The translations under genes were made by a program, and so were the position numbers. Positions 1,619 to 48,160 of a stretch of 64,000 nt of DNA are shown piece by piece. The notes under the pieces were generated by a model that worked only from the letters and a program-made list of their open reading frames with translations, searched no databases and was not told the origin of the DNA. The stretch is from the NCBI GenBank assembly GCA_963844435.1, contig CAWJOG010000001.1, positions 80,201 to 144,200 on the forward strand, given 5' to 3'. Source of the stretch: Vicinamibacterales bacterium (GTDB lineage Bacteria; Acidobacteriota; Vicinamibacteria; Vicinamibacterales; Vicinamibacteraceae). Each line of letters begins with the position of its first letter. The stretch's first letter is position 1.

Positions 1619-2793
1619 TCAGAACCACCATCCCAGCCCGACGTTGAGGGCGTTCGGGGCCGCGCACGACGCCGCTCTGGTTGCGGACCATCGACGTAGT
1701 CGACCTTGACCGCGATGTCGGGTTCCGGCCAGTAGTTCGCGCCGATCACCCACGCGTCGCGATCGAAGGCCACGAGCGGCAGTGCGCCGGCCGGCATGCG
1801 GTACTGCGTGTCGAAGTTCTCGTAGCGCGCGAAGACGCCGACGTCGCCCCAGCGCTGCGCCTTCGATGACGCGATAGCTCGCCTTCGGCGTAGGCGCCGC
1901 GGAGCGCCGCTGGCGATGTTGGGATCGACGCCGGTGGTGCGGCGCGATGGCGTCGTTCAGCTGCGCCGGCGTTGTCGATGCGACACCTGGCGAACTGCGC
2001 CGCGCAGCTCGAGGCGATCGCGGCGTGTAGCGGGCGTCCGCCTCGATCAGGTGCACCGGCACGTCGAAGCGCGGCCGCAACTCGAAGCCGGACTTGCCGG
2101 TCCAGAAGCTGACGCCGGCGGTGAGGCCGCGGAGCGCCGACGTACTCGAGCGCGGCCGGTCGAGCGCGGCGCGGCCGATGTTGGTCTCGCTGCCCTTCTG
2201 GCGCCCTCGCGGATGCCCTTCGTCGGCGCTGAACTCGAGCGGCGTTGAGCGGCGACGTCACGAAGAGCGCGGTAGCGCCAGCCGTGGCCGACCTCGCCGT
2301 GGATGCCGGCGCCGACCTCGAACCAGGTGGTCGGCACGATCACGGTGTCGACGAACGGGCGCTCGACGCCGTAGAAGACCGGCGGCTCGTGGCGCTCGTT
2401 GAGGATGCCGATCGGCATCAGCAGCATGCCGGCGCGCACGTTGAAGCCGCGCGACGAGCAGGAAGTCGACGTAGGCCTGTTCGAGCTCCAGCTCGCCGCC
2501 CTCCTCGAGGCCCTCGACGAACGCGTGCTCGAGCTCGAGCTCGCCGACGAAGCGGATGCGTCGGCGAGAACTCGTGCGTCACGAGGAGCACGAAGCGGTG
2601 GAAGTCGAGCACGCCCGTCCGCGCTCTCGGGCTTGTTGTAGTGGAAATCCATGTAGCCCGACAGGCGCGTCTGCGGCTGATGGTCGTCGCCGTCTTTCGA
2701 GTCCTGGGCCCAGGCGGGCGCTCCGACGAGCGCGACGGCGAGGGCCGCCCCGACCGCGCTCGGCAACGCGAAGAACTGTTTTTGATAACTCAA
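1619..2793 (-). CDS. outer-membrane beta-barrel porin-like protein (family uncertain), with at least 4 frameshifts
   Basis: N-terminal signal peptide MSYQKQFFALPSAVGAALAVALVGAPAWAQ. Conserved blocks lie in different frames (LDFHRFVLLVTHEFS; FNVRAGMLLMPIGILNERHEPPVFYGVERPFVDTVIVPTTWFEVGAGIHGE; RFDVPVHLIEADARYTP; AFDRDAWVIGANYWPEPDIAVKVDYV). The C-terminus is LNVGLGWWF, i.e. a terminal aromatic as in OM barrels. Confidence 0.45.
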
Positions 2794-2819
2794 AACTCAA
2801 ACAGTGAACCACCGAAAGC

Positions 2820-2960
2820 TCAGGGGTGTCAACCTGCCCGGCCTACGCCCGGCCTTCATGCCCCGGCCTCTCTCCCGGCCTCCGCCCGACCTGAGCCTGG
2901 GCCTCCTCCCGGCCTCTCCCCGGCCACGGCCGGGCCTCGGCCCGGCCTGGCCTAGCCATA
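2820..2960. repeat. GC-rich short-motif repeat array, (C)CCGGCCT / AGGCCGGG repeated about 9-10 times at 10-16 nt spacing, in the porin-TBDR intergenic region
   Basis: Direct reading: cccggcctacgcccggccttcatgccccggcctctctcccggcctccgcccgac...cccggcctctccccggccacggccgggcctcggcccggcctggcc. Confidence 0.5.
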
Positions 2961-3170
2961 AGCAGTGGACAAGCCTCTTTGCTAAATCTGATGAGCTAGA
3001 GGACCACTACCGGTTCTTGGATCGGATCCAAGCGATTGCTCTGGCGCTGATGTCGCAAGCGGGCCGACGCGGCTATAGCCATGATTACCTTGTAGATTCT
3101 TTCGGATCCGCGACCCGAGTCACCATGCGCCAGCGCAACTCACAGTGGTGTCTCAAGTGTCGAAAGATCT

Positions 3171-3184
3171 TGACCAATTGGTCA
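3171..3184. promoter_or_regulatory. perfect 14-bp palindrome TGACCAATTGGTCA (candidate operator) about 110 nt upstream of the TonB receptor start, inside a low-GC island (2960-3300)
   Basis: The sequence tcttgaccaattggtcatacc is its own reverse complement over 14 bp. The surrounding ~330 bp is visibly AT-richer than the rest of the window. Confidence 0.4.
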
Positions 3185-3296
3185 TACCTCATCTACTCTG
3201 CGCCCGAACAGACAACCTCAGCGATCGGGTCGTTGCACCGGCGTGCGCTCCGCGCGCGGTGTGTCGATCGCGGAGAAGTGTGTGGGGAGGACTACT

Positions 3297-6200
3297 GTGT
3301 CAAAGACGCGTAACGCATTGAGGCTGCTGGCGAGCACCCTCGTCGTCCTGCTGGCGGCGCTGGTGGCGCCCGCGCAGGCGCAACAGTTCAACGGCACGCT
3401 GCGCGGAGTCGTTCAGGATTCCACCGGCGGCGTCCTGCCGGGTGCCGAGGTCTCGGTCATCGAGGTCAGCACGAACGATACGCGCAGCCTGACGTCCGAC
3501 GCACGGGGCAGCTGGGTGTTGCCGAACCTCAAGCCGGGCACCTACCGGATCGTCGTGTCGCTCGACGGCTTCAAGACGGCCGCGATGGACAACGTGAAGC
3601 TGGACGTCCAGGGCGTCCGCGACGTAGAAGTCTCGCTCGAGACCGGCGCCGTGGCCGAAACCGTGACCGTCAGCGGCCAGGCCGCCGCCGTGGAAGTCAC
3701 GAGCTCGACGATGAGCCAGACCATCGAGAACAAGCGGATGGTCGATCTGCCGCTGAACGGCCGCAACCCGTTCTCGCTGGCCACCCTCGCCCCCGGCGTC
3801 GCCCCGACGTCGACCGGCGGCGGCTCGTCGCCGTCGATCAGCGGCGGGCGCAACGCGACGTCCGAGGTCGCCATCGACGGCGTCTCCAACGTCAACGCCG
3901 AGAACAACGTCTCGATCCTCGACCTGAACTACACGCCGTCGGTCGACGCCGTGCAGGAGTTCAGCGTCCAGACCAACGCCGTCAGCGCCGAGTTCGGCCG
4001 CCTCGGCGGCGGCGTCATCAACCTGATCACGAAGAGCGGCAGCAACGCGCTGCGCGCCACCGCCTGGGAGTTCGCGCGCAACGCCAAGATGGACGCGACC
4101 AACTTCTTCACCAACCGCGGCGGCGGCAAGAAGGGCGACTTCAAGCGCAACCAGTTCGGCGGCAACGTCGGCGGCCCGATCAACAAGGACAAGACGTTCT
4201 TCTTCGCGAACTACGAAGGGCTCCGCCAGGAGAACGCCAACGTCCAGACCTTCACGGTGCCGCTGCCGGAGTGGCGCAACGGCGACTTCTCGAACTTCCG
4301 CAACGGCGTCGGGTCAGCTGATCACCATCTACGATCCGCTGACGACGCGCGCAGATCCGGCCAACCCGGGCCAGTTCATCCGCGATCCGTTCCCGGGCAA
4401 CGTCATCCCGCAGAGCCGCATCAGCCCGATGGCGCGCGCGATGATGTCCTACTGGCCGCTGCCGAACACGACGCCGACCAACCAGTTCACCCAGACCAGC
4501 AACTTCTCGGCCTCGGGCGTGTCGGTCAGCAACGGCGACCGCATCGACTCGCGCGTCGACCACGTCTTCAACGACCGCTGGCGCACGTTCGTCCGCTACT
4601 CGTACTCGGACGAGGAAGGCCTGCCCTTCAACAGCTTCGGCAACGCGGCGTCGTCGGCCGGCGGCGACGGTCCGACCTTCACCCGGACGCACAGCCTCTC
4701 GGTCGATCAGAACTACACGCTCGGGCCGACCTGGGTGCTGAACCTCCGCTACGGCCTCAACCGCCGCTTCGTCGATCGCCTGCCGCTGTCGGCCGGCTTC
4801 GACCTGGCCGACCTGAACTTCCCGACGCAACGTCATCGACACGGCCGACGCCTTCGAGTTCCCGCGCGTGAACGTGCAGAACTTCCAGTCGCTCGGCCAG
4901 AACACCTTCACCGACCTGGTGATTGCGCCGACGACGCACAGCTTCAACGCGAACGCGACCAAGGTGTGGGGCACGCACACGCTGAAGATGGGCGCCGACT
5001 ACCGGAAGTTCTTGCTGAACTTCACGCAGCTGTTCTTCCCGTCTGGCCAGATCAGCTTCAACAACGCGCAGTGGACACAGCGCAACCCGAACGTGACCAA
5101 CGGCACGCAGGGCGCGGCGCTGGCTTCGATGCTGCTCGGCATCCCGAGCGGCTTCAATCTGAGCCACAACCCGGACCCGGCGTCGGCCAGTTCCTATTTT
5201 GGCGGCTACCTGCAGGACGACTGGAAGGTCGCCCGCAACTTCACCATCAACCTCGGCCTGCGCTACGACTTCGACGTGCCGCGCACCGAGCGCTTCAACC
5301 GCCTCGCCTCCTTCGACACCGAAGCCACGTCCCCGCTCGCCGGCGTGGTCCCGGCCAACCCCTACTTCGATCCGTCGCAACTGAAGGGCGCGGTGGTGTT
5401 CACCGACGAGAACAACCGCCAGCAGGTCGACACCGACTACAACAACGTCAGCCCGCGTATCGGCTTCGCGTGGAACTTCGCGGAGAAGACGGTGGTGCGT
5501 GGCGGCTATGGCATCTTCTACATGCCGTCGCACGTGCAGGCGGCCGGCCACTCCGGCTCGTCGGGGATGATCGGCTACAACACGCAGAGCGACATGATCG
5601 TCAGCGTGGACAGCAACCGCACGCCGCTGCGCTACATCGACAACCCATTCCCGGACGGCTTCAACCTGCCGCCGGGCAACACGCTGGGCGCGTCGACGAA
5701 CCTCGGGCTGGGAATGGGCGGCGGCACCGGCGGCTACTTCACGACCAACCAGGTGCCGCACATGCAGCAGTGGAACCTGAACGTCCAGCGCGAGCTGCCG
5801 GGGAACATCATCACCGAGCTGGCCTACATCGGCAGCAAGGGGACCGACCTGCTGATCGGCGAGAGCGGACTCGCAGTTCGGCCAGGTCGATCCGTCGTAC
5901 CTGGGCCTCCAGAACGCGCTGCTCGATCAGGTGGACAACCCGTTCTTCGGGATCATCACCAACCCGTCGTCGCCGCTGCGGTTCCAGACCGTCTCGCGCA
6001 ACCGCCTGCTGCGGCCGTACCCGCAGTACGACGGCGTGTCGGCGTTCCGCGTGCCGGGCGCGAAGTCGATCTACCACGGCTTCACGGCGCGCGCCGACAA
6101 GCGCTTCGCGAAAGGCCTCAGCCTGCTCGCGTCCTACACGCTCGGCGAGCTGAAGGACGACGCCTCGACCACGGTCGGCTTCCTCGGCCAGGCGGGCACG

Positions 6201-6807
6201 CAGCAGAACGCCTACGATCGCGTCGGCGACTACTCGATCTCGTCGAACGACGTGAAGTACCGCTTCGTCAGCGCCTTCGTCTACGACCTGCCGTTCGGCC
6301 AGGGCCAGCACTGGGGCGGCAACAGCCGGCGGCGTGGTCGGGGCGCTGATCAGCGGCTGGCAGATCAACGGCATCCTGACCTTCCAGAGCGGCTACCCGC
6401 TGATCTTCTCGCAGGGCGCGAACAACGTGAACCTGTTCAACCCGACGCAGCGCCCGAACTGGACCGGGGCCGACGCCACCCTGAACGATCAGTCGCGCGG
6501 CGACGCCATCCTGCGCTGGTTCGACACCAGCCAGTTCAGCGTGGCGCCGGCGTTCCAGTTCGGCAACACGCCGCGCGTCACGGAGTTCCGCTCGGACGGC
6601 GTGAAGAACCTCGATTTCTCATTGATCAAGAACAACCGCTTCAACGACGGCAAGTGGAACGCGCAGATCCGCATCGAAGCGTTCAACGTGCTGAACCGGA
6701 CGCAATTCAACGCGCCGAACACGCAGGTCGGAAGCGCGGCTTTCGGTACGGTCAGCGGCGCCGGCGGCGCGCGCCAGGTCCAGATCGGCCTGAAAATGAT
6801 GTTTTGA
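3297..6807 (+). CDS. TonB-dependent outer-membrane receptor with carboxypeptidase-regulatory-like N-terminal domain (~1170 aa); at least 4 frameshifts
   Basis: GTG start at 3297 is preceded by GGGGAGGA. Signal peptide LLASTLVVLLAALVAPAQAQ. CarboxypepD_reg-like block (GAEVSVIEVSTNDTRSLTSDARGSWVLPNLKPGTYRIVVSLDGF). Plug region (DLPLNGRNPFSLATLAPGV). The barrel continues across ORFs 4429-6153, 4868-6349, 5931-6851 and 6334-6807 and ends ...QIGLKMMF (terminal Phe). Confidence 0.8.
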
Positions 6808-6814
6808 TCGGTGG

Positions 6815-6876
6815 CGGCCGGCCCTCAGGGCCGGCCGCGGCAGCCCTGTAGCGTGCGGCTGCTGTTCGCCGCACGC
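6815..6876. terminator. two GC-rich hairpins between the convergent TonB-receptor and RibD_C genes: cggccggccc-tca-gggccggccg (6815-6837) and gcgtgcggc-N8-gccgcacgc (6851-6876)
   Basis: Inverted repeats read directly from the sequence, immediately after the TGA at 6805-6807. Confidence 0.5.
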
Positions 6877-6898: not shown

Positions 6899-7447
<549 letters not shown>

Positions 7448-7547
7448 GGCGCAACAGTACCGCCGGTGAGGTGGACGAGCAAGGCGCCTCGTCGGATCGG
7501 CGCAGGCCCACCGGCCCGGCTTGGCGGTCGAGCCCGCTCGCGTCGAA

Positions 7548-7883
7548 CTAGTCGGGGATCGTCAGGTCGATGCGACCGTCGGCCACCGCCAGCGTGACAC
7601 CCGCGCTGGCGGCCGCCTCCTGGAGCGCGGCGTCGAGGATTGCCACCGGGTCGGGACCGTGCGCCAGGCGGCGCAGCAGGCCTTCCCCGCTCTTCCCCTT
7701 CACGGTCAGCACGATCTTGAGGCCGCGCCGCTTGCACTTCACGGCGATGCCGTCCTCGCGCTTCACGTTCATCGGCTTGATGTAGGCATCGACGTAGTGG
7801 ACGCCGACGCCCGACTTGTCTTCGGTCTTTGCCGGCAGCTTGTCGATCGCGCCGGCGTTCACGGGACACAGGGTAAAGGTCAT
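7548..7883 (-). CDS. small hypothetical protein (111 aa), last gene of the corrinoid methyltransferase operon
   Basis: Intact ORF starting 12 nt downstream of the HMT stop on the same strand. No recognisable family. MTFTLCPVNAGAIDKLPAKTEDKSGVGVHYVDAYIKPMNVKREDGIAVKCK... Confidence 0.5.
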   Translation of the reverse strand: MTFTLCPVNAGAIDKLPAKTEDKSGVGVHYVDAYIKPMNVKREDGIAVKCKRRGLKIVLTVKGKSGEGLLRRLAHGPDPVAILDAALQEAAASAGVTLAVADGRIDLTIPD

Positions 7884-7895
7884 ATTCGGCGGGAC

Positions 7896-8822
7896 TCAGG
7901 CGCGGGTGCCGGCGGCGACGGTGGCGAGATGGGCGTCGAGCAGCCGCCGGAACTCACGGATGTGATCGGGGGTGCTGCCGCAGCAGGCGCCGACGATGTT
8001 GGCGCCGGCCTCGACCAGCGGCACCACGCCGCAGCCCATGTGGTCGGGGGTCTCGTCGTAGATCACCTTCATGTTCACCAGCTTGGGCACGCCGGCGTTC
8101 GGCTGCACCATGATCGGCAGGCTGGTGACGGCGCGATAGCGCAGCACCGCGTCGCGGGCCCGCTCCATCTCCATGCCCGTCCCGCAGTTGAGGGCGACGA
8201 CGTGGGCGCCGTGCTCCTCCATGAACGCGGCGGCGCGCTCCGGATCGATGCCCATCATGGTGCGGAAGGTCGAGCCGTCGAGCGTCACGTCGTAGGCCAT
8301 CGAGCCGATGATGCACGGCGCGCCGGCGGCCTTGGCCGCCTCGATCGCGAGCTGCAGCTCCTCGAGCGAGGTCATCGTCTCGATGATGATGGCGTCGGCG
8401 CCGCCGTCGACGAGGGCCTGGGCCTGCTCGTTGAAGGCGTCGCGCACCTGCGCCTCGGTGAAATCGCCGTAGGGCTCCATCAGGCCGCCGAACGGGCCGA
8501 CGTCGCCGAGCACGTAGCCGGGCTTGCCGCCGAACGCCTCGCGCGCGATCGCGACCGCGGCCTTGTTCACCTCGGCGACGTCGCCGGCGTGGCCGTGGCG
8601 GTTCAGCATGATCCGCGACCCGCCGAAGGTGTTGGTGATGATGCAGTCCGAGCCCGCCTCGGCGTAGCGGCGCTGAATGCCCAGCACCTTGTCCGGGTGC
8701 GTCAGGTTCCAGGCCTCGCCGCAGCCGCCCTGTTCGAGGCCGGCCAGCATGAGCTGCGTTCCCATGGCGCCGTCGCCGATCAGCGGGCGGGTCCTGACGA
8801 TGTCGAGTAGCGGGGTCTTCAT
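7896..8822 (-). CDS. stand-alone homocysteine S-methyltransferase domain protein (Pfam S-methyl_trans / MetH N-terminal module-like), no pterin-binding domain
   Basis: MKTPLLDIVRTRPLIGDGAMGTQL...GSDCIITNTFGGSR...VLGDVGPFG...ALNCGTG...GACCGSTPDHI are hallmark motifs of the Zn/homocysteine-binding HMT fold (BHMT/MmuM/MetH N-term). Its ATG overlaps the stop of the upstream gene (ATGA at 8819-8822). Confidence 0.8.
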   Translation of the reverse strand: MKTPLLDIVRTRPLIGDGAMGTQLMLAGLEQGGCGEAWNLTHPDKVLGIQRRYAEAGSDCIITNTFGGSRIMLNRHGHAGDVAEVNKAAVAIAREAFGGKPGYVLGDVGPFGGLMEPYGDFTEAQVRDAFNEQAQALVDGGADAIIIETMTSLEELQLAIEAAKAAGAPCIIGSMAYDVTLDGSTFRTMMGIDPERAAAFMEEHGAHVVALNCGTGMEMERARDAVLRYRAVTSLPIMVQPNAGVPKLVNMKVIYDETPDHMGCGVVPLVEAGANIVGACCGSTPDHIREFRRLLDAHLATVAAGTRA

Positions 8823-10097
8823 GCCTCTCCGGTCGTGCGCTCGGCGAGCGCGTAGTGAATCGTCTCGAGCACCAGGCCCCACTTGTGAACCCGGCTCGCG
8901 TCGTCGCAATAGCAGCCGGCCGACGACACCGGCCGTGTCCAGCCGATGACCGCACGCAGCGGCTCGCCGGCGAGCGGCGTGTCCCGGCCGACGGCGGCAA
9001 TCAGGTCGTCGCCGACGCTGATGTAGCCGCACATGTGGGTGTGCCCGGTGTCGTCGGCCGCGGGCCGGCAGCGCTGGGCGCGGATGGGGTAGCCGTCGCC
9101 GCGCGGGCCGAGCTGCACGTGATAGTCGAAGCGCAGCGGGCGGCCCATGTTCGTGCAGGTCGTACCTTCGTAGCGGAACAGCGCGTCGATCGATCCGTCG
9201 TCGCGACGCGTCAGCGTCAGGCGTTCGGCCGCCCAGCGGCGCAGCGCCTTCGCGTTGACGGTGTAGGCGGCCGACGGGTCCAGGACCGGCGGCGGGATCG
9301 CGTCGTCGATGGCCGCGTCGACGGCTGTGTCGTCGGGGGTCGGCTCGTCGAACGCGCGCGCCGTCGATCGCAGCGCACCGCGGCGATACGGCGCCCGCCG
9401 GGTACTGGCACGGGGCGAACGAGCAGCGCTCGCACGGCACCAGGTCGCGCAAGTGCGTCAGCCGCTCGACGTGGCGGGTCAGGCCGAACACCGCGATCAG
9501 CGATTTCTTCGGCCGCAGGGCGCCCGAGTCGAGCACCTCGAGCGGGCCCGGCAGCGGCGCCGCGGATGCCGTGAGCAGCGCGTGCAGCGGGGCCTGCTCG
9601 GCGATGTCCCACTCCGGATATCCCGGGCTGTCGTGCGGCAGCACCGCCAGGCCCTGCGCCTCGGCCCAGCCGCACAGGCGGGCGCCGGCTTGCGTCACCA
9701 GGTGCTCGACGACGGCGGATCCGTAGACCTCGAGGAAGAAGTACTCGTCGGGCTTCTCGTCCTGCCACCGCCGCGCCGCTTCCGCTTCCAGCTCGGGCCC
9801 GGCCCCCACCGCGACCAGCACCGCGCGGTGCGCCCCGGCGTCGACCAGCGATTGCCGCAGGCGGGCGCTGGCGAAACGCCGCCCGTCGAGGCGCACGCTG
9901 TCGGCGTCGAGCCTCAGCGTCGATGCCTCGCGGGCGAAGATCCACGGCCGGCCGTGCTCGGCGTACCAGGCCTCGGCCTCGGCCGCCAGCGCCGCGGCCC
10001 GGCCTTCGAGGCGGTGCCCGCGCGGATAGCCGAGCAGGCGCGCGTACTCGGCCGGATCGACCTGGACCGCCGGCCGGACGTCCTCGAGCGCGATCAT
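8819..10097 (-). CDS. MetH activation-domain (Met_synt_B12, pfam02965-like) protein with a ~200-aa Cys-rich C-terminal extension; internal frameshift near 9150-9250
   Basis: MIALEDVRPAVQVDPAEYARLLGYPRG...DEYFFLEVYGSAVVEH...LPHDSPGYPEWDIAEQAPLHALL matches the SAM-binding reactivation domain of MetH and the Thermotoga-type stand-alone homologs (PGYxxWP/DQ motif). C-terminal Cys clusters are CERCSFAPCQYP and HTHMCGY...CYC. Start ATG 10097 overlaps the RACo stop (ATGA). Confidence 0.6.
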
Positions 10098-11810
10098 CGC
10101 GCGGCCTCCGGCTCGGCGACGCCAGCATCCGCCGTCGCCGACGACGCCGGGAGCACCGGCGCGAACTGGCAGCCGTCGACGAAGAAATCGAAGAAGCGCC
10201 GGATGCGTCTCGAGGCGGCAGTGCTCGACCCGCCGCACCGTCTCCTCCAGCTCGGCGCGCTTCGCCCGCGACAGCAGCGCCAGCGTCGCGCCTTCGATCG
10301 CGGCATTGCCGACCTGGACGATCCGATCGGCCGGAATCATCGGCACCAGGCCGATGCGCTGCGCCGATTCGAGGCGCAGGTGCCGGCCGAACCCGCCGGC
10401 GAGATAGAACACGTCGATGGCGTCCACGTCGACGCCGAACGTGTCGAGCACCACCTTGAGTCCGGCGACGTTGGCGCCCTTGGCCTGGGCCAGCTCGTTG
10501 ACGTCGCTCTCGAGCAGGCCGACGCCGGTCGCCGCATCGAGGGTGACCTTCGACTCGCCGTCCTCGAAGCGGCCCATGGCGTTCATCCGCCCCGTGCGCA
10601 GCAGCTCGCTCAGGGTGTCGACGAGGCCCGATCCGCACAGCCCCTCGGCCGGGCCGTCGCCGATCACGCCGAGCGCGAACGTGCCGTCCGCGCGCGCCTC
10701 GACCGTCGCGACGGCGCCGTCGAGCGCGGGCATCCCACAGGAAATCGCGCCGCCCTCGAAGGCCGGACCGGCCGGGCACGACGCCGCCAGGACGCGGCCG
10801 CGATGGCCGAGCAGCAGCTCGGTGTTGGTGCCGATGTCCATCACCACCGTGAGGCGATCCGCGTGCGCCAGATCGACCGCGAGCAGGCAGGCCGCGGCAT
10901 CCGCGCCGACATGACCGCTGATCACCGGCAGCCCGTAGACGCGCGCCCTTGGGTGGATCGGCAGCAGCGACCGGCGGCCGCTGGCCACCAGGCTGGTACT
11001 GGCGCGCTTGCCTTCCGCCATCTCGATCTCGGTGATCGACTGGTACGGGCTCTGGCCGATCGAGTGCACGTTCTGCCGGAAGAACAGGTCGCGCATGGTC
11101 GCGTTGCCGACGACGATCAGCTCGTAGATCGTCTGCGGATCGACCGGGAACTCCTCGATGGCGTGGCTGATGTAGCCGGCCAGCGTCCGCATCAGCAGGA
11201 AGCCGCCCTGCTCGGTGTCGTACTGGATCCGCGCCATCACGTCGGAACCGCCGAAGCGCTGCGGGTTCTCGAACGACGCGTCGGCGACGAGCGCGCCGGT
11301 CTCGAGGTCGAACAGGCGCAGCACGACGGTCGTCGTGCCGAGATCCATCGCCAGGCCGTGGATCGGACCGGTCGACCGCGCCACTTCCTCGCCGTCGACG
11401 AGGATGCGATCGCCGTCGCGTGTCACCGCCGGATCGAGCACCAGGCCGGTGTGTCGCGCCGCGATGTCGGCGCAGCCGGTGAGGACGCGCAGCTGGCCGC
11501 GCCGCATCGTGTGGCAGCGGACGTGGGCGTCGCCGTCGATCGTGGTCCGGCACGACAGGCGGAAGTGGCCGCGCAGGTGCTGCTCCTCCGGTGTCGGCGG
11601 GGACAGCGCGTCCTGGCCCTCGGTGACCTCGACCAGGCACTCCTTGCACTTGCCCTGCTTCTTGCAGGACGTCGGCACGCGCACGCCGAGCCGCTCGGCG
11701 TGCTCGAAGAGCGTGAGCCCCGGCACCGCCGCGGTCGACTGGCCGTTCAGGGTGAGCGTCGCGGGCACTCTGTCTGGAACCGTTCCTTTGCCTGTTGGCG
11801 GCGTCCGCAC
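10094..11810 (-). CDS. corrinoid reductive activase RACo-like (N-terminal 2Fe-2S plant-type ferredoxin plus ASKHA/DUF4445 ATPase); C-terminal frameshift near 10200-10300
   Basis: N-terminal TLTLNGQSTAAVPGLTLFEHAERLGVRVPTSCKKQGKCKECLVEV (2Fe-2S ferredoxin Cys pattern). ASKHA motifs GLAMDLGTTTVV, VMDIGTNTEL and GSGLVD. The C-terminus (FFDFFVDGCQFAPVLP...) lies in the adjacent frame ending with TGA at 10094. Confidence 0.8.
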
Positions 11811-11829
11811 GGCGGCGGCTCTCTCAACA

Positions 11830-12086
11830 CTAAAAGCCGGCCTTCGCCTCGAGCTCGGCGCGCACGGCCTCGGCCACGTCCTGGGCCGACCCGTCGCGCT
11901 CCTCTTCCTCGCTCCAGCGCCACTGCGCCAGGTAGTCGTCCGAGCCGCCCAGGCCGCGCTCCGCCGCCAGGCGGTCGATGCGCTCCTGGAAGCGGTCGGG
12001 CATCAGCAGCGTCACGTCGTCGGCGTCGTCCTCGGCCTTGATCTGCGAGGGGACTTCCTGCCAGTAGAGGACCTTGTAGCTGGCCA
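11830..12086 (-). CDS. small acidic protein of unknown function (85 aa), translationally coupled between corrinoid protein and RACo
   Basis: MASYKVLYWQEVPSQIKAEDDADDVTLLMPDRFQERIDRLAAERGLGGSDDYLAQWRWSEEEERDG... Its ATG overlaps the upstream stop (TGATG at 12084-12088). Confidence 0.45.
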
Positions 12087-12761
12087 TCAGGCAGGAGCTC
12101 CCGTCTCTCTCGGGGCGGCTTCCGCTTCCTGCGACAGGCGGAGGAAGAGGTCGACCGCCGCCGACGCGTTCTGGCCGTAGCCGTCGGCACCGATCTCGTC
12201 GGCGAACATCTGGCTGATCGGCGCGCCGCCGACCGCCATCTTGATATGGCCGCGGCCGGCCGATTCGAAGCCGTCGATGACCTGCTTCATATAGGTCATC
12301 GTCGTCGTCAGCAGCGCGCTCATGCCGATGATCGTCGGCTGGCACTTGTCCGCGGCGGCCATGAATTTCTCGACGCTCTGATCGACGCCGATGTCGACGA
12401 CCTCGAAGCCGGCGCCCTCGGCCATCATGCAGACCAGGTTCTTGCCGATGTCGTGCAGGTCGCCGCGCACGGTGCCCATGAGCAGCGTGCCGACGCGCTT
12501 CGTCGTGCTGTCCTTGGCCGAGAGCAGCGGCTTGAGGACGCTCATGCCCGCCTTCATCGCGCGCGCCGCGATCAGCACTTCCGGCACATAGAGCACGTTG
12601 TGCTTGAAGTCCTCGCCGACCACGCTCATCCCCGCGATGAGGCCGTCGGTCAGGATCTCCTGCACCGGGCGCCCCGCGGCGAGGGCATCCCTGGTCATCT
12701 GCTCGACCTCGTTGGCCTTGCCCTCGTAGAGGTACTGGTTCATCAGGGCGTAGTCGATCAT
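12086..12761 (-). CDS. cobalamin-binding corrinoid protein (B12-binding domain with N-terminal cap helix; MtaC/MetH-B12-domain-like)
   Basis: Intact 224-aa ORF. DxHxxG B12-ligand motif (GTVRGDLHDIGKNLV), then GxxV...GMSAL...T Rossmann-like B12-binding signature and the N-terminal helical cap. Confidence 0.85.
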
Positions 12762-13828
12762 CGCCCGCCCGCCATCGCGACCTTGCGCTTGCCGTTGAAC
12801 TCCGCGAGCGCCTCGAGCATCGCGCGGATGTTGCGCCCCGGCATGCCCGGGCTCGTGCCGCCGCCGACCGAGAGGATGATCCCTTCGCCCTCGGAGCCTT
12901 CGAGCACGTCCAGCGTCGCTTCCTTCACGTCGTCCTCGTCGCCGCGCACCGCGATCTCGAGCGGGTTGACGTTGCCCATCAGCACCATGCGATCGCCGAC
13001 GCGCCGCTTCACCTCGCGGATGTCCTTCTGCTTGCCCCAGTTGAGGCAGTTGAAGCCGGCGTCGGGCAGGTGATCGAGGCAGGCGTCGACCTCGGCGTCG
13101 TTGTGATAGAGCTTCACCCAGTCGTTCGGGAAGGCATCACAGATGCGCTTCAGGTAGGGGTGCGCGAACTCCTTGTAGTGCTCCTCGTTGATGAAGCCGA
13201 CGATGTCGTCGAGGATGAAGATGCCCTCGACGGTGTCGCCCATCGCCGCGTGCTGCGCCTTGAGCCAGTCGATGATGACCCGCGTGCACAGGTCGATCAG
13301 GCGATGCGCGCCTTTCGGGTCCTCGACCAGGTCGATCATGAAGTGCGTGGTGCCGCGGACGAAGCCGGCCGTGCAGAGCGGGCCGCGCGCGGTGACCATC
13401 GGCAGGATGTAGCCGGCGTCGAGGATGCGCTGCTTGTGCATCCGGATGCGGTGCAGCGTCATCGCCGCGAAGGCGTCCGCATCGACTTCGTACTCAGGGA
13501 AGTTGTCGATGTCCTCGAGCCGGTAGAGCGTGTGGTACTCGCTCGGCGTGTTGTCCTGCCAGAACTTGATCTTCGAGCCGAGGATCGACGGCTCGGCGGC
13601 CATGCCGTATTCCATCCACCAGCCGGGGACGAAGATGACCTCCGGATACTCCTCGAAGATCTTCAGGTTGGCCTGGAACCACACCTCGGGGTCGAGGTAG
13701 TAGTCCATGTGCTTGATGCCGAGATACCCGGGAATCCACGGGCTGTCGACGATCAGCGCCATCGGGATCTCGTCCAGCTTCTCGCGGCGCACGGCGCGCT
13801 TGAAGGTGTCCCATTGAGCAGGCAACAT
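12758..13828 (-). CDS. uroporphyrinogen decarboxylase (URO-D) superfamily methyltransferase, MtaA/CmuA-like (corrinoid-dependent methyl transfer)
   Basis: Intact ~356-aa ORF. URO-D fold length and pattern (IPMALIVDSPWIPGY...ILPMVTARGPLCTAGF...GIFILDDIVGFI...). AAGGA Shine-Dalgarno before ATG 13828. First gene of the operon. Confidence 0.75.
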   Translation of the reverse strand: MLPAQWDTFKRAVRREKLDEIPMALIVDSPWIPGYLGIKHMDYYLDPEVWFQANLKIFEEYPEVIFVPGWWMEYGMAAEPSILGSKIKFWQDNTPSEYHTLYRLEDIDNFPEYEVDADAFAAMTLHRIRMHKQRILDAGYILPMVTARGPLCTAGFVRGTTHFMIDLVEDPKGAHRLIDLCTRVIIDWLKAQHAAMGDTVEGIFILDDIVGFINEEHYKEFAHPYLKRICDAFPNDWVKLYHNDAEVDACLDHLPDAGFNCLNWGKQKDIREVKRRVGDRMVLMGNVNPLEIAVRGDEDDVKEATLDVLEGSEGEGIILSVGGGTSPGMPGRNIRAMLEALAEFNGKRKVAMAGGR

Positions 13829-13842
13829 TCGATAAGGTCCTT

Positions 13843-13880
13843 TTCTGACCGGACGGGCCAGTTCTGACCGGAGGGGCCAG
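13843..13880. promoter_or_regulatory. tandem 19-bp direct repeat TTCTGACCGGA(C/G)GGGCCAG x2 immediately 5' of the operon's first gene; nearby imperfect palindrome with two CACGTG cores (13925-13950)
   Basis: Read directly: ttctgaccggacgggccag ttctgaccggaggggccag. The downstream stretch gctcacgtgtcaacgtgtgagc lies in the 420-bp divergent intergenic region. Confidence 0.3.
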
Positions 13881-14251
13881 CCCTGGTCCACGACCCGAAC
13901 AAAACAGGAAGTACATCACCGTGAACGCTCACGTGTCAACGTGTGAGCGCGTCATTCCTCAGGGTGCAACCGCAGGCAGCAGCGCGAGTTGCCGTGTCCG
14001 TGCGTTTACCAGGGGCCGTTCCGGCCGCCGTGGGGCGACTTGCCGGTGGGGCGAACGCCCGCCGGCGACGGGAACGACGGGCCGGCGGACGGGCCGAATC
14101 GCCGGAAGAGGCGGCGACCGGACGACCCTGCTAGACTTCCCTCAGCGGCCCCCGCCGCGTCAGCAGCGCGGCCCCCGACGCGCGACTTCCCCGCAGCCTC
14201 CCCCGGGGCAGCGAGTGGCTTCCACAGTCGCGATTTCCGGAGGTACTCGAC

Positions 14252-16670: not shown

Positions 16671-17110
16671 TCACGCGGTCGGGTCCGGTTCGCCGGACCC
16701 GGCCTCGACCGCCCACGACGCCAGCATCAGCGGATACATCCCCACCAGCGTCGCGCCGAGCGCGATCGCCGGCGCCGATGGCGCCGCCCCACCAGGCCGC
16801 CAGCGGCAGCACCACCACAGCGACACCACGAGACCGGCGGCATTGAGCGCGTCGGGGATCCACGCGGCCGGCGCCGGCCGTTCCGCGGCCACGCGGCGCG
16901 CGGACGGCGGCGCTGAACCCGGCCGACGGCATGGCGTCGCGGAAGCGCGCGGCGAGCGCGGTGTCGAGCGCCGTCTCCTGCTCGAGCAGCTCGGCGCACG
17001 ACGGGCAAGAGGCGACGTGCGCGTCCAGCGACGACGTCATCCTGCGGCGACGCCTCGCCGTCCAGCCGCCGTTCGATGAGGACCGCGGCGCGGTCGCAGC
17101 CGATCATCGG
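16671..17110 (-). CDS. putative anti-sigma factor (zinc-finger N-terminus, single TM segment), frameshifted
   Basis: MIGCDRAAVLIERRLDGE... / MTSSLDAHVASCPSCAELLEQETALDTALAARF (HxxxCxxC-type anti-sigma motif). C-terminal hydrophobic segment LVVSLWWCCRW. Directly downstream of an ECF sigma gene. Confidence 0.45.
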
Positions 17111-17690
17111 ACGGCTCCGGCGGCTGGCGCCATCAGGCTGGCCAGACGCTTGCGGGCACGGTGCAGGTGGCTGCGCACGGTATTGATCGGCATGTCCAGC
17201 ATCCCGGCGACCTGCTCGTAGGATCGCTCTTCCAGGTAGAACAGCCGCACGATCCGCCGCTGCGGCTCGTCCAGCATCTCGACCAGCGTCTCGCACTCCA
17301 TCCGCAGATCGACCGGCGACGCCGCAGACATCGGCGCCGCCGGATCGGCGGGGTCGTCGTCGAGCGACGCCGTCGGCCGCGCATCCGCGCCGGCGCAGCT
17401 CGCTGAGGCAGGCGTTGCGCGCGATCACGTAGAGCCACGTCGAGAACGACGCCCGCCCGTCGTAGAGCGGCAGCGCCCGCCACAGCCGCACGAACGCCTC
17501 CTGCGCCAGATCCTCGGCGTCGGCCGGCGTCCGCACGTAGCCCAGGGCCAGCCGATAGACCCGGCCGCGATACGCCGTCAGCAGCCGCTCGAACGCCCGA
17601 TCGCGCTCGCCCGCCGCGAGCAGCCGGCAGACCTCGGCGTCAGGGGTCGACTCGTCGGGCACGCGCACGGTGATACCCGCGGCCGGCCGG
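17104..17690 (-). CDS. ECF-type RNA polymerase sigma factor (sigma-70 family, regions 2 and 4), frameshifted
   Basis: Region 2 is DAEDLAQEAFVRLWRALPLYDGRASFSTWLYVIARNACLSELRRR (ORF 16727-17773). Region 4 is LDEPQRRIVRLFYLEERSYEQVAGMLDMPINTVRSHLHRARKRL (ORF 17104-17331). The two lie in different frames. Confidence 0.7.
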
Positions 17691-17771
17691 AAAAGTTGCA
17701 GCCAGGGGGACGCCGCCGCCTGCAACCTTGCCGGCATGCCCCGAGTATCAAGCACGGAGGTCAACCCGTCC

Positions 17772-18158
17772 ATGGAATATGTCTGGTTTCCGCTCTTCGT
17801 CGCCTCGGTGCTCGCGTTCGTCGGATTCCGTCAGTGGTTGCGGCACCAGCAGCGGGCGATGGTGCATCGCGAACGGCTGGCGGCGCTCGAGAAGGGCGCC
17901 GATCTCCCGGCCTGGCCCGATGAGTCGCCATCGCGGTTCGCCTTCGGGCTGGACAGCGTCCTGCTGCTGTCCGGGCTGATCTGGCTGTCGATCGGCCTCG
18001 GCGGCATGTTCGCCGCGTGGTTGATCGTGTCCGATCCGATGGTGCAGCGGCTCCCCGATGCGGTCCCGGAGTCCATCGCGCTCATCGGGGTGCCGGTCGC
18101 CTTGATCGGCGTCGCGCACCTGATCGTCTACGGGGTCCGCCGGCGAGGCAGCCGATGA
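17772..18158 (+). CDS. small integral membrane protein (3-4 TM) of unknown function
   Basis: MEYVWFPLFVASVLAFVGF...LLLSGLIWLSIGLGGMFAAWLIV...IALIGVPVALIGVAHLIVYG is a hydrophobic profile only. Confidence 0.4.
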   Translation: MEYVWFPLFVASVLAFVGFRQWLRHQQRAMVHRERLAALEKGADLPAWPDESPSRFAFGLDSVLLLSGLIWLSIGLGGMFAAWLIVSDPMVQRLPDAVPESIALIGVPVALIGVAHLIVYGVRRRGSR

Positions 18159-47266: not shown

Positions 47267-48160
47267 CCCCGACGACTCCGGAGTCCTGGGCGTACGACTC
47301 CGGAGTCCTGGGCGCGCGACTCCGGAGTCTGCGCACTCCGGAGTCGGACACGACTCCGGAGTGCCAGAACACCGGACTCCGGAGTGGTTGAAGGAATTGA
47401 TCGCCCCGAGCGCCCGGGCGGTGGCAGTCCTTCCTCAGTCGTATTCATCGATCATGCGGCGGCGGAGTCGACGCAGTGGCTCGCGCTTCAGCTGAGAGCG
47501 GATCCGCTGGAGCTCTGCCGTTTCGATCGCCGTATCGACGTAGTCCTTCCAGTCGGGCGGACGCGGCGCCGGCCACGTCGACAGTTGGATCGGCGAGCCG
47601 GCCGCGGCGCTGGACCACGGCCATGCACCCGGCGTCGACACCAGGCGTGCCGCGCAGGGATTGCGTTCCACATATCGAACGACGCGATAGAGGTTCGCAT
47701 CCGCTTGGACCGCAACTGCTTCGTACCGTTCCGGATACACCTGCCCCCTGGTGCCGTGCCAGCGGTGGAACCGCTTCGCGTGCGTCAGCGACAGCCAGCC
47801 GACGAAGCGCTCCACGGCTGCGTCGGTTTGAGGCCAGATCACGAAGTGCCAGTGGTTCGGCATGACGCAGTAGGCGAGCAGCCGCGTCGGCCGCACGACC
47901 TGGGTTTCGGCGATCAGATCGACGAACGCGCGATACGCGGCGCGCGAATCGAACAGGGTCACGCCGGCGGCGGAACGATTGGTGACGTGGTAGACGAAGT
48001 CGGCGAGGATGCGAACAGGTCGGCTGGGCACGCCAGTCGCTGATCAAGCCGCGTACCAGACTTCGATTCCGGAGTCGTCCCACCAGGACTCCGGAGTCGA
48101 CTTGCCAGGACTCCGGAGTCGTCACGACACGACTCCGGAGTCGTTCAATCCCATCACCGG
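47263..48160 (-). mobile_element. REPtron: REP-associated tyrosine transposase gene flanked by REP clusters
   Basis: Left cluster (47263-47400): about 6 copies of the perfect 12-bp palindrome GACTCCGGAGTC (some truncated to ACTCCGGAGT), with 8-15 nt spacers. Right cluster (48055-48160): 4 copies. The RAYT gene lies between them. Confidence 0.75.
47435..48031 (-). CDS. REP-associated tyrosine transposase (RAYT; IS200/IS605 TnpA-like Y1 HUH transposase)
   Basis: YHVTNRSAAGVTLF (N-terminal motif), HUH motif MPNHWHFVIW, catalytic-Tyr region LYRVVRYVERNP. 198 aa, intact. Confidence 0.8.
   Translation of the reverse strand: MPSRPVRILADFVYHVTNRSAAGVTLFDSRAAYRAFVDLIAETQVVRPTRLLAYCVMPNHWHFVIWPQTDAAVERFVGWLSLTHAKRFHRWHGTRGQVYPERYEAVAVQADANLYRVVRYVERNPCAARLVSTPGAWPWSSAAAGSPIQLSTWPAPRPPDWKDYVDTAIETAELQRIRSQLKREPLRRLRRRMIDEYD

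Follow-up and report, generated by a model that had tools for sequence, protein, structure and literature searches.

Background

Promoters of the sigma-70 type may carry an operator between their two hexamers, as described for systems of the lac O1 or tet type. A different layout is known from the NarL family of response regulators, for which the published box of OsdR/DevR reads AGGGCCGATCGGCCCT (PMC5069765), and a third from the PHO-box-type operators of Streptomyces, where each PhoP monomer occupies one 11-nt direct repeat unit and an operator can contain as many as five such units or more (PMC2691820). Here, we compare with these systems the 503-bp region (positions 2794-3296) that separates the start of a minus-strand porin gene from the start of a plus-strand TonB-dependent receptor gene in a genome of the Vicinamibacterales (Acidobacteriota). 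The window is the whole stretch of DNA analysed, 64 kb in length. We consider it fairly probable that the interval is a shared control region of the two divergently transcribed outer-membrane genes, with a promoter of the receptor gene, a putative operator in the spacer of that promoter, accessory upstream blocks and a minisatellite. Such a region is ordinary in kind but well conserved, and its cis-elements were previously uncharacterised.

How genes are regulated in Vicinamibacteria and other soil Acidobacteria has hardly been studied, and soil Acidobacteria encode dozens of TonB-dependent receptors of the CarboxypepD_reg type whose substrates are not known. The locus provides a promoter footprinted by conservation, a candidate operator and candidate distal sites, all of which could serve regulon searches in complete genomes or isolates; candidate search motifs are TGGTNNNACCTCATC, GACC-N4-GGTC, TGGACARKCCTCT and arrays of CCCGGCCT-N3.

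A conserved receptor promoter with a constrained spacer

Our comparison is based on 13 upstream regions of orthologous receptor genes, the window included, from metagenome-assembled genomes (MAGs) of Vicinamibacterales and from metagenomes. They were recovered by a genome scan (L001, L002, L003 and L006), a metagenome pattern scan (L049-L053) and look-ups of homologous proteins (L054, L059 and L061), and receptor identity within the set is roughly 80-95%. The nearest relatives are long-read MAGs of Vicinamibacterales, and L050 is an Illumina contig about 95% identical to the window.

In every one of these orthologues, TTGAC(C/A)-N18-TA(C/G)(T/G)CT is found 120-127 nt before the start codon, embedded in divergent DNA. 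The corresponding element of the window (block E, 3170-3199, plus strand) is the predicted receptor promoter, composed of a -35 hexamer TTGACC (3170-3175) with five of six consensus positions, an 18-nt spacer (3176-3193) and a -10 hexamer TACTCT (3194-3199); it encloses the palindrome TGACCAATTGGTCA (3171-3184) and TGGT-CAT-ACC (3179-3188). A more distant orthologue, L058, which has a VWA gene upstream and is devoid of the upstream blocks A-D described below, carries TTGACC-N17-TAGTCT with an unrelated spacer. Likewise, a sister clade with receptors 66-80% identical (L005, L010, L031, L033, L036, L056, L057 and L060) has TTGACS-N16-19-TATTMA, described as a strong promoter, at the same position. 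Judged from these two comparisons, the hexamers probably represent the shared functional core. Furthermore, all 13 loci have an A-rich run immediately before the -35, in a genome of 70% GC.

Within the spacer, 13 of the 18 positions are invariant, as counted on the eight loci whose recovery did not depend on the promoter pattern. Variation is confined to the centres of ACC-N4-GGT and TGGT-N3-ACC (3179-3188), whose arms are fixed, a pattern resembling the TnGT-N3-ACnA of GntR/FadR-type operators. The conservation of the spacer thereby goes far beyond what a promoter spacer requires, and the spacer likely contains the operator of a dimeric regulator within the promoter. Comparable to promoters with an in-spacer operator of the lac O1 or tet type, the hexamers stand 18 nt apart behind an A-rich stretch, and the TGGT-N3-ACC arms are invariant in the clade of the window with a variable centre between them; in contrast to these systems, the -10 of the window is weak (TAcTcT) and the conserved part includes the non-symmetric TCATC.

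In our model, the receptor gene would be transcribed from the sigma-70-type promoter TTGACC-N18-TACTCT, which an A-rich UP-like stretch would precede, with transcription presumably starting around 3206. A leader of about 90 nt (3206-3296, plus strand) would follow, containing an inverted repeat CTCAGCGATCG...CGATCGCGGAG (3217-3275) and, as ribosome-binding site, the Shine-Dalgarno sequence GGAGGA (3286-3291); the leader block was found at orthologous loci only. The dimeric regulator would occupy its putative site between the two hexamers, at an operator of the repressor type.

The 14-bp palindrome

The original prediction had singled out the perfect 14-bp palindrome TGACCAATTGGTCA as a possible operator of a dimeric regulator. 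The palindrome is present as claimed, at 3171-3184, and is in itself weakly unusual: the chance of such a palindrome in a shuffled 503-bp region is about 0.04, and the window contains 25 perfect palindromes of at least 14 bp versus 11.1 +/- 3.4 in shuffles. It combines the -35 hexamer with the first 9 nt of the promoter spacer, and its perfect form is restricted to the window and L054 among the 13 loci. The left arm TGACC, which is at the same time the -35, is intact in 11 loci, the right arm GGTCA in 6 (its inner GGT in 13), and the centre AATT in 4, with no compensating changes between the arms in any of the 13. Judged from these alignments, the perfect symmetry is probably incidental and particular to this strain and one close relative, so that a striking palindrome should not be over-read here. 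What survives of the predicted operator is the spacer itself, whose invariant arms and variable centres would fit a bound regulator.

A search for a regulon revealed no other copy of the palindrome, of block A or of the leader in the window or the fetched loci, and a metagenome pattern scan for the promoter/palindrome site yielded orthologous loci only, among the matches listed. Even at three mismatches, no second TGACCAATTGGTCA occurs in the 64-kb window (0.59 expected). A solitary palindrome in an unconserved region had been proposed as the mark of random spacer DNA; the palindrome is indeed solitary within the window, yet the region is conserved in related genomes.

Could the palindrome nevertheless be a true symmetric operator, bound by a dimer of a NarL/LuxR-family response regulator and inherited from an ancestral module with a two-component system upstream of the receptor? 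We regard this as unlikely. It draws on the sister clade, in which a histidine kinase and a Response_reg+GerE (NarL-type) regulator are encoded immediately upstream of the orthologous receptor and co-oriented with it, and in which the gap between regulator and receptor is occupied by GACATAGGTC-type direct-repeat boxes (GAC-N4-GTC), which are spaced 14 nt apart and continue into the -35 (L005 5663-6000, for instance). In addition, the 9-mer GACCGATTG is common to promoters of the sister clade (L004, L056 and L060) and of the window clade (L049, L053 and L059), and TGACC-AATT-GGTCA has the 14-bp 5-4-5 layout of the OsdR/DevR box (PMC5069765). However, the sister-clade response regulator has no tblastn match in the 64-kb window at E<1e-5, nor in the fetched flanks of the window clade, and the symmetry is lost in relatives, the right outer arm being kept in 6 of 13 loci without compensation. 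Unlike the usual activator site, the palindrome lies between the -35 and the -10, centred near -29, which is a repressor position, and the homology between the clades upstream of the -35 is ambiguous owing to an 8-nt register shift. The NarL-type two-component system of the sister clade is a testable candidate regulator family all the same. As a separate observation, L005 also contains a (CAGT)5 microsatellite and a second, degenerate copy of the promoter.

Upstream blocks and the low-GC segment

The segment upstream of the receptor promoter had been noted as strikingly AT-richer than its surroundings, and our measurements agree: windows of 100 nt between about 2950 and 3250 have 52-58% GC versus about 70%, and 2978-3177 is the lowest-GC 200-nt stretch of the entire window (53.5% versus a mean of 70.1%, standard deviation 4.1). 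Its conserved part begins abruptly with block A, (A/T)GTGGACA(A/G)(G/T)CCTCT or TGTGGACA(A/G)(G/T)CCTCT (2964-2978, plus strand), which forms the sharp left edge of receptor-linked conservation, occurs once per orthologous locus and is otherwise absent from the window and from the 53 loci fetched first (L001-L053). Block B, TGAGCTnnnG(G/A)ACCACTAC (2992-3010, plus strand), is likewise conserved across orthologous loci. It is followed by block C (3016-3032), an 8+1+8 palindrome or hairpin CTTGGATC-G-GATCCAAG whose stem TTGGA/TCCAA is kept around a variable loop, and which is absent in three loci, namely the short variants and L052. Two shorter palindromes had been reported in this segment, and both exist; GGATCC is located at 3104-3109, but GGATCGGATCC is part of the longer palindrome of block C. 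Finally, block D, GTGGTGTCTCAAG (3145-3157), is present in about 7 of the 13 loci and is followed by the A-rich UP-like stretch (3160-3169) that adjoins the -35 (together 3145-3169, plus strand).

Between these blocks, the lower-GC spacer (3033-3144) evolves fast. The DNA 30-150 nt upstream of the promoter is 51-61% identical to that of relatives, close to saturation considering a random baseline of 47 +/- 2% with the same aligner, whereas third codon positions of the neighbouring genes are 79-87% identical. Nevertheless, block A and the promoter are 200-209 nt apart in 11 loci; in the other two, 97 or 108 nt separate them. The claim of a dedicated regulatory region is thereby borne out, with several blocks conserved in 13 loci and the DNA between them near-saturated with changes. 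In our reading, the low GC reflects relaxed constraint on non-coding sequence, in a genome with 70% GC, together with AT-rich promoter features; the low-GC “island” would be weakly constrained, fast-evolving DNA that separates conserved blocks.

The gene to which the blocks belong can be told from their neighbourhood. Upstream, the neighbour varies, being a porin in some loci, another divergent TonB-dependent receptor in L001 and a co-oriented one in L006, and blocks A and B occur irrespective of it; downstream, a fusion of a RACo-type activator and an S-methyltransferase is kept across relatives. As the upstream neighbour varies while the downstream gene is kept, blocks A-E would belong to the receptor gene, and the upstream blocks at 2964-3032 and 3145-3157 go, by synteny, with the receptor rather than with the porin. 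Blocks A, B and C (2964-3032) as well as D (3145-3157) may serve as accessory upstream sites of the receptor gene.

Other explanations of the upstream blocks were tried and rejected. Regulation by a cluster of Dam/GATC sites can be set aside, as GATC occurs 10.5 times per kb genome-wide and the 6 sites in 350 nt are matched or exceeded by 17% of windows of the same size. A sigma-54 reading of TGGACA...TTGC has the wrong spacing, and TTGC is not conserved by eye. Descent of blocks A-C from the 3' end of a response-regulator gene is not significant (tblastn E-values of 3-26); the resemblance is weak and collinear, and limited to block C, with DRIQAI versus DRTEAV. Separately, distant orthologues of lower GC labelled as Blastocatellia (L008, L012, L016, L032 and L037) exhibit, some 150-200 nt before the receptor gene, a TTGCTGGGAT-like motif, which is unrelated to blocks A-E.

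The porin side and the 11-bp repeat array

On the porin side, a promoter-like element (2803-2832, minus strand) consists of TTGACA (2832->2827), an 18-nt spacer and TTCACT (2808->2803). TTGACA-N18-TT(C/G)ACT is conserved in seven porin-linked loci, and an eighth, L053, has TGTCAA by eye; because the second hexamer has no A at position 2, the assignment as porin promoter is tentative. If TTCACT does serve as the -10, the mRNA of the porin would have almost no leader and, oddly, begin at a UUG start codon. Just before the porin TTG there is also a small conserved hairpin, CGGUG-GUU-CACUG, with a U-rich run behind it (2814->2802, minus strand); it is terminator-like in appearance and shows a change from G-U to A-U in L002.

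Directly abutting the putative porin -35, about ten units of an 11-bp minisatellite extend over 2836-2948 (plus strand), each with the 8-nt core CCCGGCCT and a variable 3-nt linker. The repeat array of the original prediction is hence real but shorter than proposed, about 113 bp and not 140. Tandem Repeats Finder describes it as 9.8 copies of period 11 with the consensus GCCCGGCCTCC, and the array ends 4-5 nt from the porin-side TTGACA (2832->2827). CCCGGCCT occurs 19 times in the window versus 5.3 expected, with 6 of the 19 copies inside the array. A comparison of 39 units, drawn from the window, L050, L052 and L054, shows 87-100% conservation of the core per position and a variable linker. 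There are 10 units in the window and L050, 11 in L054 and at least 8 in L052, where the array breaks the short-read assembly; linker order and unit number differ among these four although the flanks are about 95-100% identical. In L052, at least four and probably five units are identical including the linker, the first being cut at the contig end. The array, and indeed any copy of CCCGGCCT, is absent from L002, L003, L051, L053 and L059, all of which have the same porin promoter, and no similar array was found in the rest of the window or among the 53 loci fetched first (L001-L053).

The simplest reading of these comparisons is a young minisatellite, specific to this locus and lineage, which would have arisen between the porin promoter and block A and turned over fast by slippage. 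Like intergenic variable-number tandem repeats, it is a head-to-tail, non-coding array that is polymorphic in units among close relatives. It differs from the repeats that act as phase-variation switches in its position outside the interval between -35 and -10, and therefore could not act as a classical switch of the spacing type; the asymmetry of core and linker is also unusual for this class.

Several findings weigh against our interpretation of the interval as a shared control region with these parts. First, the -10 TACTCT of the receptor promoter matches the consensus at three of six positions (A2 and T6 are present), because of which a simple scanner with a threshold of 4/6 per hexamer makes no call. 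Second, the conservation of the spacer could act at the RNA level or serve another sigma factor. Third, no regulator gene was found adjoining the locus in a limited search by tblastn and a scan of some neighbour genes. In addition, the constant 200-209 nt between block A and the promoter, maintained across near-saturated DNA, hints at a spacing constraint for which our interpretation does not account, and the 8+3 pattern of core and linker in the array is not predicted by neutral slippage alone.

The latter pattern would be explained if the CCCGGCCT repeats were a functional array of helically phased sites that bind a winged-helix regulator of the OmpR/PhoB type, controlling a phosphate-porin-like gene, which we judge quite unlikely. 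The period of 11 bp, the conserved core and variable linker over 39 units in four genomes, the end of the array 4-5 nt from the porin -35 and the membership of the porin in the Porin_O_P family are all compatible with it, and the 11-nt direct repeat units of Streptomyces PhoP set a precedent (PMC2691820). Indeed, the array has the 10-11-bp direct repeats with a conserved core that characterise OmpR/PhoB-type operators and shares with PHO-box-type operators its period, its build of core and linker and its place directly upstream of a -35. Unlike these, it is not conserved at orthologous promoters, being missing in the five relatives named above with the same porin promoter, its GC-rich core does not resemble any PHO box known so far, and its ten or eleven units far exceed known operators. 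Furthermore, whole units identical down to the linker, as in L052, are typical of recent slippage, and no regulator for the array was identified.

A more ambitious proposal gathers both unexplained features, taking the 10-11 phased 8-nt CCCGGCCT sites, each with its 3-nt linker, as an evolvable and tunable platform to which a regulator of the phosphate-type porin would bind, and blocks A and B as distal sites kept about 204 bp from the receptor promoter across the saturated spacer. We give it little credence; if it were true, the spacing of blocks A and B would imply DNA looping or another form of distance-dependent control of a TonB-dependent receptor in Acidobacteria.

Structured RNA and foreign DNA

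That the low-GC segment encodes a structured RNA, be it a small RNA or, for the receptor, a leader or riboswitch, was part of the original prediction and is in our view very improbable. The long upstream region of about 330 nt with its conserved blocks, and the inverted repeat of the leader, which is conserved with 89% of cells paired, speak for it, and the corrinoid-dependent neighbour genes described below would make a cobalamin-responsive leader plausible. However, in 2300-3800 Rfam yields no riboswitch or small-RNA match even at E<=10, except for a 20-nt partial SorX match inside the repeats; at gathering score there is none in the whole window, where no cobalamin riboswitch was detected either, and Rfam also yields none in six Illumina orthologues. 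The scan suggested earlier for RNA families and tRNAs thus returned no RNA family and, with ARAGORN, no tRNA. Folding energies show no excess over shuffles in 10 orthologues on both strands (z-scores of about 0 to -1.5), RNAalifold consensus energies are merely -4 to -8 kcal/mol, and in 8 of 11 loci the long-range stems do not exceed chance. Covariation in the leader hairpin is no better than in shuffles, and a wider leader alignment gives a different, weak consensus. Moreover, L058 and the sister clade lack blocks A-D and still have the promoter. A structured RNA specifically between block A and the promoter was rejected as well, given that RNAalifold, z-scores per sequence and a search for long-range stems were negative or inconsistent.

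Protein coding is not apparent either, as there is no conserved open reading frame (ORF) on either strand. A small ORF beginning with ATGTGGACA is open in L002 and the window, but was discarded, as it runs into stops after no more than 7-13 codons in L001, L003 and L050, all Illumina loci; frames on the minus strand are likewise interrupted.

That foreign or mobile DNA left the low-GC island behind, for example as a miniature inverted-repeat transposable element (MITE), an insertion-sequence fragment or a prophage scar, is barely conceivable: the segment does have the lowest GC of the window, 12-bp inverted repeats at 3036-3047 and 3127-3138 in this strain (P=0.01) and long and short variants that differ by about 100 nt, but it has no BLAST match in phages or plasmids, is single-copy in the window and all fetched loci, and sits at the same position in all relatives with downstream synteny kept, the inverted repeats are not conserved, and the repetitive extragenic palindrome (REP) family of the genome is a different one (GACTCCGGAGTC, beside a RAYT gene). 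Unlike REPs, bacterial interspersed mosaic elements or MITEs, of which many dispersed copies, an associated RAYT gene, or terminal inverted repeats with target-site duplication are expected, the elements of the region are single-copy.

Flanking genes and other elements of the window

Upstream of the interval lies the 5' part of a gene for a Porin_O_P-like outer-membrane porin (2047-2793, minus strand; TTG start 2793-2791), whose intact orthologue in L050 encodes 385 aa and matches Pfam PF07396 Porin_O_P with 30 bits versus a cut-off of 20.9. Downstream, the gene of the CarboxypepD_reg-type TonB-dependent receptor (3297-6851, plus strand; GTG start 3297) encodes CarboxypepD_reg and OMP_b-brl_4 domains; P0001 is its truncated product of 524 aa, as called on the source contig. 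In this assembly, the porin gene changes frame at least five times and the receptor gene four times. Since the differences from the Illumina contig L050 are scattered 1-nt indels, the frameshifts probably represent errors of long-read assembly, concentrated in this stretch of the contig, and not pseudogenes. Many such indels occur in the porin, cupredoxin, di-haem oxidoreductase and receptor genes (1-2793 and 3297-6851), unlike in the 1304-aa gene at 7896-11810, which is intact.

This gene belongs to a cluster for corrinoid-dependent methyl transfer (6899-13891, minus strand) convergent with the receptor gene, whose products comprise a RibD_C protein, the 1304-aa fusion of a RACo-type activator and a homocysteine S-methyltransferase, a B12-binding corrinoid protein and a URO-D-like methyltransferase.

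Elsewhere in the window, a REPtron-like arrangement was observed. Perfect 12-bp palindromes GACTCCGGAGTC form arrays of 5 and 4 copies with 22-bp spacing at 47274-47392 and 48065-48148, flanking a gene for an IS200-like Y1 transposase of the RAYT type of roughly 198 aa (about 47440-48040, minus strand; Pfam Y1_Tnp, 37 bits), and ACTCCGGAGT is confined to these arrays within the window. A link between these elements and the control region was considered and rejected; they are also 12-bp GAC-N6-GTC palindromes, but constitute a separate, RAYT-tied sequence family. Finally, an ORF of 348 aa with a Sigma70_r2 domain (16727-17773, minus strand), possibly an extracytoplasmic-function-type sigma factor with an extension, is located about 10 kb past the 3' end of the receptor gene and ~13 kb from the control region.

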